Assembly (NCBI GenBank): GCA_026416845.1
Contig: JAOAEL010000001.1
Coordinates: 318-64,317 of the forward strand
DNA length: 64,000 bases
Source: Patescibacteria group bacterium
Lineage (GTDB): Bacteria; Patescibacteriota; Microgenomatia; UBA8517
Direction: 5' to 3'
Positions 35,784 to 39,147 of this stretch are shown in pieces. Numbering within the stretch: position 1 is the stretch's first letter; each line of letters opens with the position of its first letter. Under the pieces are notes generated by a model that saw nothing but the letters and a program-made list of their open reading frames with translations, made no database searches and had not been told where the DNA came from. The position numbers and the translations under genes were made by a program.

Positions 35784-36524
35784 TTACCTCTTTATATTTC
35801 CACACGCAAAACCCAAAGTTATAAGCGCGTTTGTGTTTTGCAATCCAAGCAATCTTTTTACTTCGTCATCACGCAAAGCGCCAGATATCACCCCACCAAG
35901 TTTTTCCAGAGATAAACGCAACGCTAGATTTTGCGCATAATGTCCAACTTCAATTAAAATGAACCTCCCACCACGATCTCCATACTTATCTATAGTTCTT
36001 TCCGGTATGGCGACAAAAACAAAAAACACCGCTGGCACACCATCTAAATTTAGACCGAAAAACTCCTGTTCTTTTTGCCAATCACAAGACTCTGCAACAA
36101 CTGAAAGGGAGTGATTATCAGCATTGTAATAAACAACTTTTTTATTCAGCTTCGACCTGACATTGAATAAAAAAGCGTAAACCTCAATAGGATATTTACC
36201 TCCAGCTGAAGGAATCAACCTAGTTGATTTAGATCTCTGAGCAAATGCATAAAATAGCGAACCAAGTTGTTTTTCGGACAATGCGACATCTGAAAAACTT
36301 CTTGAGCTTTTGCGCTCACACATCAAACGCGATAAATTATCCCTAGGTCTTGACAAAAATAAATCTTCAGTTGGATAAAAAATTTGAGGGACATTTTTTG
36401 CAGTACGAGCATCTTCGTCAAGTCTCTTTGCTAAAGTTAAAATGTTCCGCTTATTTATCTTTGAATTTTCCCAAAATAAACTAAAAAGTGTGCCATTTTT
36501 GATATTGTTTGCCATATTAACCAA
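35784..36524 (-). CDS. SagB-type FMN-dependent dehydrogenase (McbC-like; TOMM 'B' protein)
   Basis: Diagnostic PSAGGKYPIEVY motif (consensus PSAGGLYP) and a nitroreductase-like fold. Overlaps the upstream ycaO stop by 8 nt, giving an operon. Confidence 0.8.
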   Translation of the reverse strand: MVNMANNIKNGTLFSLFWENSKINKRNILTLAKRLDEDARTAKNVPQIFYPTEDLFLSRPRDNLSRLMCERKSSRSFSDVALSEKQLGSLFYAFAQRSKSTRLIPSAGGKYPIEVYAFLFNVRSKLNKKVVYYNADNHSLSVVAESCDWQKEQEFFGLNLDGVPAVFFVFVAIPERTIDKYGDRGGRFILIEVGHYAQNLALRLSLEKLGGVISGALRDDEVKRLLGLQNTNALITLGFACGNIKR

Positions 36525-37776
36525 GTGGGTGAGGATATTTATTTGGAAACTCTATTTGATTAACCAAATCCGGATATCGCCATTTTACATCGTTTATTCT
36601 CCCCCCAAGAAAAGGTGCTCTCTCATCGCCATGAATTAAAGAAAGTTCTGGAGACAATACCCTAATCACATTTAATCCCGCTTCGCGCACATCAGGCAAA
36701 GTAATGTCACGATAAAAAATTCTAATTCCAACACCTTTGAGCTTATCAAGCAACCTGCCAAGAATAGCCTTGGTATCATATTCGCGCTTTTTAATAATGC
36801 GTTTTTTGTAAGCAAATTTTTTGGCTAATAAAGGAACCTGTTCCCATAAATCAGGATACATTGTGTAATAAACAGCATGCTCGTCAAAATCAATCAAATC
36901 CTTTTTATCTTCAAGCTTGATATCCGGATGATAAATATCGTAAAATCCGGCAAAAATCGCGCCTTGTATCCATTCCAGATAAGCCTTTTCTATTGCTTGT
37001 TCATAAGTCTCTCTGCATGCAACTCCCATGGAAATACGTTTTTTGTTTCGTTGTTTTAAATAACCACACACAATAACAACGGGATACGGATTCCAAATCT
37101 GCGTTATATCAAAGCAAAGAACCTGCCCAAACTTTTTTGTGATGGGAGCTACGTACCTTTCTTCAAGCCTGATTTCTCTTCCGCCAAGCGAATTGAGCCA
37201 ATACACAGTCAAAGCGTCTCGTTCCAATAACTCCTCAATGGCAAGTAAAAGTCCTTTGTATTTATCAAAATGCGCCGCCAGCCCTGTCGAAGTAGATGGA
37301 ATAAGCGCTTCATCAGATTTCGTTCCAAGACCAATTAACTCCTGCGGCACCCAAAATTTTTCATTGTCATAGACAGAAAAAACTTCTCCAAAAAAAGCTT
37401 CATCCGTGCCAAATTTCCTCCATGGAAAATCAGAACTATTATACTGCTCTTCAGAAAACAAAGAAAATTCCGAATGAGTTATTACTTTTTCCCCTTTCAG
37501 ATCTTGCAATTTTTTTATTGGAAAACTAATCACAGCGGCTGAGTACCTCTCCATTGCTTCCGCAACAGCACCAACTATAGCCTGATTTCTGTCCCTGCTT
37601 ATACTTCCACTTGCTGATTTCCATGGTTGCACAGAATCTTCTGGAACTGACACATTAAAAATTCCTTCTATATCTGAAAAAGTATTTTCAACTATTTGAA
37701 ATGGCAATGTAATGCCGGAGCGAAAACTTGCAGCTTGAGATAAAACCAAATAATCTAAATTTTTAGCGCTGACCAT
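36517..37776 (-). CDS. YcaO-domain ATP-dependent cyclodehydratase (TOMM 'D' protein)
   Basis: YcaO signature (QAIVGAVAEAMERYSA, STGLAAH) and a 419-aa size typical of stand-alone D proteins. Confidence 0.8.
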   Translation of the reverse strand: MVSAKNLDYLVLSQAASFRSGITLPFQIVENTFSDIEGIFNVSVPEDSVQPWKSASGSISRDRNQAIVGAVAEAMERYSAAVISFPIKKLQDLKGEKVITHSEFSLFSEEQYNSSDFPWRKFGTDEAFFGEVFSVYDNEKFWVPQELIGLGTKSDEALIPSTSTGLAAHFDKYKGLLLAIEELLERDALTVYWLNSLGGREIRLEERYVAPITKKFGQVLCFDITQIWNPYPVVIVCGYLKQRNKKRISMGVACRETYEQAIEKAYLEWIQGAIFAGFYDIYHPDIKLEDKKDLIDFDEHAVYYTMYPDLWEQVPLLAKKFAYKKRIIKKREYDTKAILGRLLDKLKGVGIRIFYRDITLPDVREAGLNVIRVLSPELSLIHGDERAPFLGGRINDVKWRYPDLVNQIEFPNKYPHPLG

Positions 37777-37779
37777 CCC

Positions 37780-38292
37780 TTAAAAAACAATCTTAATCCA
37801 AACAATAAACTCCAAAATCATCAAGCATGTGGTAATTAATACAGTAACAAGAATATAAAAAAGAGAAGCCTTATACCTACGTCCAATTAGAAACAAAATA
37901 GTAGTGTATGTTATCAAAAAAACAATAAACGCAACCATAATCACATTTATAATTCCATAGAACCCTTTAAAAATTGGAATTCCAGATATAAAATCAACTA
38001 AATCTCCACTAAAAAACATCCATAGTAAATATATAGATACTGGCAAGATAAAAAATCCTAAAAATATTGCCTCCATCTTTCTTGACTTAACAACATTAAC
38101 AGGCAAGCCAGATTCTAGAGCTTGTTTTTCGGCCATCTTGCCAAAATTCCGCGCAGTGATAATAGATGAGGTAAGAGCAGTTGCAATACAACAACAACAG
38201 GAACAAGAACAACATGGTCCGCAGGTTGGGGTTGCCACGCTCGCGCGCGCTTTCTCATCATCAAATTGAGATACTAGCCTTATCATAAACAA
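37780..38292 (-). CDS. Atypical Cys/Ser/Thr-rich peptide segment fused to a 3-4-TM membrane domain; candidate substrate/precursor of the adjacent YcaO machinery
   Basis: Residues 20-48 read VATPTCGPCCSCSCCCCIATALTSSIITA, which contain 9 Cys plus several Ser and Thr. An internal Met (KMEAIFLGFF...) precedes a roughly 100-aa hydrophobic domain. The start lies 3 nt downstream of the E1-like gene and the stop 3 nt upstream of ycaO. Confidence 0.5.
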   Translation of the reverse strand: MFMIRLVSQFDDEKARASVATPTCGPCCSCSCCCCIATALTSSIITARNFGKMAEKQALESGLPVNVVKSRKMEAIFLGFFILPVSIYLLWMFFSGDLVDFISGIPIFKGFYGIINVIMVAFIVFLITYTTILFLIGRRYKASLFYILVTVLITTCLMILEFIVWIKIVF

Positions 38293-38295
38293 CTT

Positions 38296-39147
38296 TTATT
38301 GTAGCTGATTATTTCTTAATGTCCAAGGAAGTTCAAAAGATCCCAATCCTTCTTGTGGCTTTTCAGGATAACAAATCGGACACCAAGGGAGGCAAAACAC
38401 ATGATCAATTTTGGTTGTCAAATTATTTAAGTTCAAAGTCAACGTTTTTTCAATCAGTTCCGGACAACTACCTATATTTCGAAAAGTGCGCACTTGCTCC
38501 AAAATTAGTGAAGCTATAAGCTCTCCACTTGAGCTTGCGTTAGGAACAAGCGGAGGATTCGCATCCCCCCAATTTCTAGTAATCCTTCCTATAAAACAGC
38601 CCAAGCATGCCGTTTCATTTGGGAAGACAAAAGGTCCAAGGGACAATGTGTGATCAAAAGCAACATCAAAAAACAAATGAGGAATTTTTATGTTTTCATA
38701 ATCTCTCATCACCTCTGAAAGTTTGCCAGAAGTGCGCACAATTACCATCAGATTAGCTCCATCGGACTCATTTTGTATAAATAATTTTTCTTCTTTTTCT
38801 ACAAATTTTTTTAGCCAATGAAAAATTTTTTTATTAGAAGCCCCAATCCACCTAATAGCAAATCCTACTGGTTTTGACTCGCTATAACTTGCGTCTTTTT
38901 TATAAATCACTCCAGCTTTTTCAAGCTTGGAGATTACCTGAAGAATATTTTCATTGACTGTTGAGTTATTTTTAAACTTATGAATTTTATTTTCTTTGTA
39001 AGCCTGATAAAGTTTTTGGCAATCTTCACCTGATAATTCTTCAACTAAATATAGTTCATCAGCGCCTTTTGTTATTATCAATTTCCCATCCTCAATAAGC
39101 ATATTCCAATTAAGGCTTTTTTCATAAATAAGCGTTTTTTGTGGCAT
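38296..39147 (-). CDS. E1/ThiF-like protein lacking a nucleotide-binding motif (candidate TOMM 'C' docking/scaffold protein)
   Basis: Two Cys pairs about 70 aa apart (CLGCF ... CLPWCPIC), matching the Zn-tetrathiolate spacing of the ThiF/MoeB/McbB family. No GxGxxG. Sits at the head of the C-A-D-B operon. Confidence 0.5.
   Translation of the reverse strand: MPQKTLIYEKSLNWNMLIEDGKLIITKGADELYLVEELSGEDCQKLYQAYKENKIHKFKNNSTVNENILQVISKLEKAGVIYKKDASYSESKPVGFAIRWIGASNKKIFHWLKKFVEKEEKLFIQNESDGANLMVIVRTSGKLSEVMRDYENIKIPHLFFDVAFDHTLSLGPFVFPNETACLGCFIGRITRNWGDANPPLVPNASSSGELIASLILEQVRTFRNIGSCPELIEKTLTLNLNNLTTKIDHVFCLPWCPICYPEKPQEGLGSFELPWTLRNNQLQ

Follow-up and report, generated by a model that had tools for sequence, protein, structure and literature searches.

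The stretch of DNA analysed here, referred to as the window, is 64,000 nucleotides (nt) long and derives from a contig (JAOAEL010000001.1, positions 318 to 64,317; assembly GCA_026416845.1) of a Patescibacteria group bacterium. Its minus strand contains, between 35784 and 39147, four intact and closely packed open reading frames (ORFs) in the order C-A-D-B, whose coordinates and products are as follows:

38296-39147, minus strand: C protein gene, 283 amino acids (aa), peptide-binding and E1-like
37780-38286, minus strand: A protein gene, 168 aa from the ATG at 38286, membrane protein and putative substrate
36517-37776, minus strand: D protein gene, 419 aa, stand-alone YcaO protein and predicted cyclodehydratase
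35784-36524, minus strand: B protein gene, 246 aa from a TTG start or 243 aa from the ATG at 36515, probable SagB-type dehydrogenase with a nitroreductase fold, dependent on flavin mononucleotide (FMN)

The spacing of the genes varies with the start codons chosen. The A gene has an alternative TTG start at 38292 that would give a product of 170 aa, and the ATG at 38286 is the start used in NCBI entry MCX7928087.1, which is identical to the A protein and annotated as 'hypothetical protein'; as read from the sequence, the C-A spacer is 3 nt with the TTG start and 9 nt with the ATG start. The A-D spacer is 3 nt, and D and B either overlap by 8 nt (TTG start of B) or are separated by a single nucleotide (ATG start). 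An initial annotation had described this segment as four tightly packed minus-strand genes for azole-peptide biosynthesis in a reduced genome like those of the candidate phyla radiation (CPR), with a Cys-rich membrane ORF placed between C and D. The ORFs read from the sequence agree with its coordinates and with the tight packing, the Cys-rich membrane ORF does lie between C and D, and the host is indeed CPR-like, being represented by a Patescibacteria metagenome-assembled genome whose D, C and A proteins have identical counterparts at NCBI under the name "Patescibacteria group bacterium". In the contig index, an exact search with the D protein gives no entry.

The D protein belongs to the YcaO superfamily (PF02624, 129.4 bits, cut-off 25.7), and its best NCBIfam model is the SagD model TIGR03604 (171 bits, below the cut-off of 219). 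In an alignment with 31 relatives the residues E73, E76 and R77 of YcaO motif 1 ("AEAMERYS") and E182, E185, R186 and D187 of motif 2 ("EELLERDAL") are invariant, and with these ATP/Mg-binding acidic residues D has the features of a YcaO-superfamily cyclodehydratase, its activity being predicted from the sequence. A search of the PDB sequences with the single D protein gives no match and a family profile is needed; with the profile MusD, TruD, LynD, McbD and MJ1094 are matched. The D protein ends in NKYPHPLG, which in most relatives reads NPxPHPLG, and a proline-rich PxPxP C-terminus is typical of azoline-forming YcaO proteins.

The C protein has a winged-helix peptide-recognition domain at its N-terminus, similar to the recognition elements of ribosomally synthesized peptides modified after translation (RiPPs), and the rest of it is an E1/ThiF-like domain. 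The E1-like fold, the pair of CxxC motifs and the lack of a glycine-rich nucleotide loop had all been described in the initial annotation and are present as claimed, so that the E1-like part is without the usual glycine-rich ATP loop. The two motifs (C181-x2-C184 and C256-x2-C259) form a putative structural Zn site, and the four Cys are invariant in the family. The C-protein model matches LynD, McbB and MccB and shares their beta3-alpha3 N-terminal domain, and C is an E1-like partner protein with a predicted leader-peptide recognition domain. Its scores with the specific models are low, with 18 against a cut-off of 188 for TIGR03603 (SagC), and 24.5 against 36.9 for TIGR03882 (the leader-binding domain).

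The B protein matches the nitroreductase family PF00881 (59.9 bits, cut-off 23.5) and comes just under the cut-off of the SagB model TIGR03605 (73.0 against 78.4); its matches among the PDB sequences are 3eo7, the nonribosomal peptide synthetase thiazoline oxidase BmdC, and McbC. The enzyme trio of C, D and B that had been proposed for this locus is real. The profile models by which it was to be recognised give a divided result, in that PF02624 and PF00881, the superfamily models, are above threshold, and TIGR03604, TIGR03605 and TIGR03603 are not reached.

The A protein consists of four parts. A leader and a Cys-rich core are followed by a conserved hydrophobic segment, and then by a Lys/Arg-rich linker with a membrane domain of three helices. 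The following segments of the gene encode them:

38224-38286, minus strand: leader MIRLVSQFDDEKARASVATPT, 21 aa, carrying the family-wide L-[VP]-[ST]-Q-F-D motif
38188-38223, minus strand: core CGPCCSCSCCCC, residues 22-33, with 10 Cys and 2 Ser in 12 residues, predicted thiazole/oxazole sites
38146-38187, minus strand: hydrophobic segment IATALTSSIITARN, directly after the core and predicted to be helical
37783-38079, minus strand: membrane domain, residues 70-168, with predicted transmembrane (TM) helices at approximately 74-94, 112-135 and 145-165

Comparison of 10 homologues shows that residues 1-48 of A are almost invariant and that the membrane part is moderately conserved. Nine positions of the hydrophobic segment (T36, L38, S40, S41, I42, I43, T44, R46 and N47) are the same in all 10, and residues 25-44 have a Kyte-Doolittle hydropathy of 1.78. 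The linker (residues 45-74, before the first TM helix) contains six Lys/Arg, and the N-terminus of A is therefore predicted to be cytoplasmic and reachable by soluble enzymes. The first helix of the membrane domain has a G-F-F-x-x-P motif and the last one a conserved E159-x3-W163; among close homologues G77, F79, P82, T152 and E159 are invariant, and W163 is nearly so. We note that an E-x-x-x-W pattern corresponding to E159-x3-W163 (window 37783-37860) recurs near the C-terminus from Patescibacteria to Pseudomonadota. The possibility that the membrane part is merely a variable anchor was considered and is ruled out by the conservation of G-F-F-x-x-P and E-x3-W across phyla, and the buried, conserved acidic residue in the last helix hints that the membrane domain has a function of its own. 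Neither Pfam nor NCBIfam assigns a family to the A proteins scanned from five phyla, and all A proteins looked up in NCBI, RefSeq and UniProt are listed as "hypothetical protein". The A protein has the adjacency, the N-terminal leader and the Cys/Ser/Thr-rich core of a precursor of thiazole/oxazole-modified peptides (TOMMs), but it is a membrane protein of 168 aa.

The core differs slightly in a sister strain (locus L006) that has 96.7% nt identity to the window over 8.8 kb. The L006 core (compared over 2360-2880) has one TGT codon fewer, giving 9 Cys rather than the 10 in the window, so the length of the Cys run may vary by repeat slippage. The L006 A gene also has -1 and +1 changes in two T-homopolymers approximately 60 nt apart, which are either compensating frameshifts or errors of a low-coverage (3x) assembly.

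The cassette is widespread. A scan of GTDB with one genome per species gave 110 matching stretches, of which the best 79 loci were kept, and 84 fetched loci were analysed in total, 79 of them genome loci. The D protein has approximately 115 close relatives at 35-75% identity, and the cassette is present in at least 79 species genomes of at least seven bacterial phyla. The carriers include many Patescibacteria (Parcubacteria, Komeilibacteria, Dojkabacteria and Saccharibacteria), as well as Bacillota (Bacilli and Clostridia), Myxococcota, Dormiibacterota, Actinomycetota (Arachnia propionica, Gaiellaceae and others), and many Pseudomonadota (Stenotrophomonas maltophilia, S. rhizophila, Bordetella, Achromobacter, Aquabacterium, Aromatoleum and others). 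With Stenotrophomonas, Bordetella, Achromobacter, Arachnia, Bacilli, Clostridia and Myxococcota among them, the notion that the cassette is a peculiarity of CPR bacteria does not hold. Homologues of C, D and B are found nearly everywhere (81, 84 and 83 hits in the 84 loci). Most phyla have the genes in the order C-A-D-B, Bacillota in the order A-D-C-B, and the C-A-D-B order, which had been taken as a mark of novelty, is therefore not diagnostic.

The architecture of A accompanies the enzymes throughout. In 70 of the 79 genome loci an ORF with the motif M-x-x-L-[VP]-[ST]-Q-F-D, a Cys/Ser/Thr-rich core and predicted TM segments adjoins D, and variants of the motif (DAFD, NPFD, SPFE and NQFK) are present in four more. 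In L010 and L017 the contigs end just upstream of D and A is not reached; L057 has no intact A ORF, L069 lacks a C gene and has just a 32-aa fragment, and L083 was not recovered in the D search. The presence of this architecture beside the YcaO gene in nearly all related loci argues that it is not a chance feature. The A homologues of these loci are membrane proteins of 144-311 aa, and several loci contain A paralogues in tandem, two or three per locus, whose Cys/Ser patterns differ slightly (L007 2482-3917, L036 4030-4990, L070 3851-4968, L077 4010-4986 and L080 4415-7536), an arrangement that resembles the precursor multiplicity of other RiPP clusters. In Pseudomonadota the core is typically GGGSTSTTCSSC in place of the Cys run, with only 2-3 Cys kept, and this replacement by Ser/Thr suggests that the conserved property is a cyclisable residue rather than a thiol.

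An A profile searched against 1.84 billion representative proteins gives 198 related clusters (defined at 50% identity) at E <= 1e-3, and 92 at E <= 1e-10. Nearly all of the 198 are 140-285 aa long and the match starts at residue 1. Fetched relatives of less than about 110 aa appear to be truncated, most of them still with a hydrophobic segment, and no stand-alone short precursor is seen among the 198 clusters. Within the 84 loci no protease, transporter, immunity or other flanking gene is conserved beyond the genus level, and no TfuA gene is seen in the cassette in any locus. Two individual loci are of note. The closest metagenomic relative (L001; 74% YcaO identity) has a gene for a 70-aa XRE-type helix-turn-helix protein directly upstream of C (4423-4635), which is without a counterpart in the window and may be an optional regulator. 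The 3 kb contig of L017 (CAZHBQ010000152.1), whose YcaO protein is 56% identical to that of the window, is binned as an uncultured Methanobacteriaceae archaeon; it is short and is similar to the Bacilli versions, and it is therefore probably a binning error and not an archaeal occurrence.

We propose that these genes probably constitute a self-contained four-gene cassette of the TOMM or linear azol(in)e-containing peptide (LAP) type, which takes as its substrate the N-terminal tail of a small, conserved, polytopic membrane protein and whose product stays membrane-bound. We infer the substrate role of A, the formation of rings and the membrane anchoring of the product, the first of them from the strict adjacency of the genes, the highly conserved leader and core, the replacement of Cys by Ser/Thr, and the tandem paralogues, all of them features of the sequences. 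The azole-forming steps of the McbBCD and SagBCD systems are established biochemistry, and by analogy with them we propose that the winged-helix domain of C would bind the A leader (MIRLVSQFD...) and that its E1-like part would dock onto D and activate it. D would then use ATP to cyclodehydrate the Cys (and Ser/Thr) of the core to azolines, and the FMN enzyme B would oxidise these to azoles. Since no protease or exporter is conserved, the membrane fusion is universal and the membrane domain has conserved residues, the polyazole segment is expected to stay on the membrane protein, where it would lie at or in the cytoplasmic face of the membrane.

Several points weigh against this proposal. The topology of A rests on simple hydropathy and a charge rule, and the AlphaFold (AF2) model of A, which has helices at 29-58, 63-92, 112-137 and 142-167 and disordered residues 1-29, is moderately confident, with a predicted local distance difference test (pLDDT) score of 65.6 overall and of below 50 for residues 1-29. 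The TOMM-specific NCBIfam models are the best matches of the enzymes, yet all of these matches are below the curated cut-offs, and in the SAGGKYP motif of the B protein the Lys beside the Tyr varies within the family. Genes for a leader or carrier protease and for an exporter could also lie elsewhere in the genome, in which case a peptide might be released.

This last point leads to an alternative that we regard as less likely but serious, namely that the product is a secreted or released cytolysin or bacteriocin like streptolysin S, with the A membrane domain acting as a carrier, self-export or immunity module and a distal protease freeing the peptide. The A core does resemble those of the streptolysin S family, but the match of the window protein to TIGR03602 is non-significant (E 0.036, 14 bits), and across the window and related A proteins the scores (E 0.008-0.036, 14-16 bits) are far below the cut-off of 35. 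The best NCBIfam model of the YcaO protein is that of the SagD family, and the small-residue junction before the core (ATPT before C, and AGGG before S in Proteobacteria) is like leader-core junctions. Patescibacteria are moreover often epibionts, for which a contact-delivered lytic factor would be plausible. However, a protease, an ATP-binding cassette (ABC) transporter and an immunity gene are not conserved beside the cassette in any phylum, the membrane domain has its own conserved positions, and the 198 A clusters are without a stand-alone short precursor. A cell-autonomous membrane function seems likelier than a secreted antibiotic.

It is much less probable that A is a metal- or redox-active protein rather than a substrate, with C, D and B acting on a distally encoded peptide or protein. 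Ten clustered Cys could bind metals, but the proteobacterial A proteins keep only 2-3 of them and have Ser/Thr instead, and A has a conserved leader-like N-terminus. Distal precursors do occur, since in the TOMM atlas (Cox et al., 2015; PMC4603692) a precursor was identified within 10 kb of D in only 46% of TOMM clusters and some are encoded distally; here, A is between or beside the enzyme genes in essentially all loci, and a further conserved small ORF is absent. A YcaO protein of a housekeeping type (E. coli-like and linked to S12/RimO, or thioamide-forming), only incidentally adjacent, is scarcely credible here, in that its weak matches to TIGR00702 (E. coli-type YcaO; 35.5 bits, cut-off 75.65) and TIGR03266 (McrA-thioamidation YcaO; 40.2, cut-off 365) fall short, the cassette has no TfuA gene, and the E1-like and SagB-type partners to which YcaO is strictly linked across phyla speak against the automatic annotation of D homologues by the Joint Genome Institute as 'ribosomal protein S12 methylthiotransferase accessory factor'.

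Among known systems the enzyme architecture is closest to those of streptolysin S and microcin B17, and the C fold is closest to LynD and TruD. Like streptolysin S and clostridiolysin S (sagA-I), the cassette encodes C, D and B as separate enzymes (E1-like, YcaO and FMN dehydrogenase, respectively), and in A a short leader is followed directly by an uninterrupted Cys/Ser/Thr run, with a hydrophobic stretch after it. SagA, however, is a free peptide of approximately 50 aa, and the sag cluster has a CaaX-type protease and an ABC exporter, whereas here a membrane protein of 144-311 aa carries the core as its N-terminal tail and neither a protease nor an exporter is conserved. Membership in the streptolysin S family was considered and rejected, as the streptolysin S, SagC and SagD models are below their cut-offs, and a sagE-type protease and a sagGHI-type transporter are not conserved. 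The microcin B17 precursor McbA is a soluble 69-aa peptide, and the product is exported by McbEF and targets gyrase. Sequence identity here to the microcin B17 synthetase McbBCD (PDB 6GOS/6GRI) is only ~10-14%. In the cyanobactin enzymes LynD and TruD, C and D are fused into a single chain, and their substrates are multi-core peptides that undergo macrocyclisation later; C and D are separate here. The thioamidation of McrA by YcaO and TfuA differs in its chemistry, depends on TfuA and involves neither an E1-like nor a SagB partner; it offers an earlier example of a YcaO enzyme that modifies a full-size protein and not a released peptide.

Clusters of the LAP type have been reported from CPR bacteria. 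Sharrar et al. (2020; PMC7298704) describe 110 LAP clusters from 93 CPR genomes, with a nitroreductase gene adjoining YcaO in 89 of the clusters, and the supposed rarity of such clusters in small-genome lineages carries little weight as an argument given these numbers and the many Patescibacteria members found here; LAP-type clusters in CPR bacteria are therefore not new. The window cassette shares with those clusters, which come from Parcubacteria, Microgenomates and other CPR groups, the YcaO gene and the adjacent nitroreductase gene, and it may itself be counted among them. The published example differs in having an 84-aa precursor and a peptidase, and a membrane-fused substrate is not described there. 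The TOMM atlas (PMC4603692) recognises approximately 20 families and defines precursors as ORFs under 150 aa, a definition by which the 168-aa A protein would be missed by design; its section headings and a search for terms point to no match, with no mention of transmembrane fusions, Stenotrophomonas, Bordetella or Achromobacter. Its "propionisin" family was considered, because Propionibacteriaceae carry the cassette, and was ruled out, since it has ABC transporters and several CaaX proteases. Full-text searches of a literature collection with incomplete coverage of subscription journals turned up no account of a membrane-fused TOMM substrate, so that an earlier description is possible. With this in mind we suggest, tentatively, that the cassette may represent an undescribed, phylum-spanning class in which a TOMM-type C/D/B synthetase would permanently modify the N-terminal tail of a conserved integral membrane protein with a run of thiazoles/oxazoles. 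The initial annotation had also raised the idea of a distinct TOMM-like class, and this is reasonable given a substrate architecture that is conserved in approximately 200 clusters and belongs to no Pfam or NCBIfam family.

The surroundings of the cassette contain few features that can be related to it, and the following were recorded on its upstream side and downstream of it:

39173-39202, minus strand: promoter-like hexamer pair just upstream of the C gene, with 9/12 matches, a weak consensus match only
39148-40472: 1.3 kb upstream of the cassette with no long ORF and a G+C content of 0.395, compared with 0.32-0.34 around it
39485-39742, minus strand: small lipoprotein-like ORF inside this 1.3-kb stretch, reading MNMKKKVACVVGLIMLAFTLACG... 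from an internal Met
40473-42377, minus strand: 634-aa ORF directly upstream, with no Pfam match at E <= 0.001
28755-35604, minus strand: run of cell-envelope genes downstream of the cassette

Promoter-like sites number 24 in the region overall where 14.3 are expected by chance; the promoter and terminator scan is uninformative. The 1.3-kb upstream stretch (39148-40472) is also kept in the sister strain L006, and an Rfam scan of it gives only sub-threshold noise. The downstream run of envelope genes includes a fusion of glycosyltransferase family 2 (GT2) and PMT_2 domains (720 aa), two S-adenosylmethionine-dependent methyltransferases, a polysaccharide-biosynthesis or flippase-type protein, a GT2 and a family 4 glycosyltransferase (GT4); these genes are not conserved as its neighbours in other genomes. 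With the YcaO protein as query, tblastn gives no match among plasmid records, and there is thus no evidence for a plasmid-borne cassette.

To our knowledge, nearly all known YcaO systems that form thiazoles and oxazoles make small secreted peptides such as toxins, antibiotics and cyanobactins. The kind of enzyme encoded here is known already, and what is new is best described as a predicted TOMM-type synthetase dedicated to the tail of a membrane protein, unannotated and present in at least seven phyla. Genome mining in the style of the atlas could miss the cassette, through the rule that a precursor has fewer than 150 aa and through the annotation of A as "hypothetical protein". Some carriers of the cassette are genetically tractable, among them Stenotrophomonas maltophilia, an opportunistic pathogen, and several species of Bordetella and Achromobacter, and Arachnia is cultivable; the proposal is therefore directly testable, which it would not be if the cassette were confined to uncultured Patescibacteria. 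If it is correct, these would be the first azole heterocycles on a membrane protein, with the polyazole as a built-in membrane-associated element, and azole chemistry would be extended from natural products to the modification of membrane proteins, raising the question of what role a rigid polyazole segment plays at the membrane.

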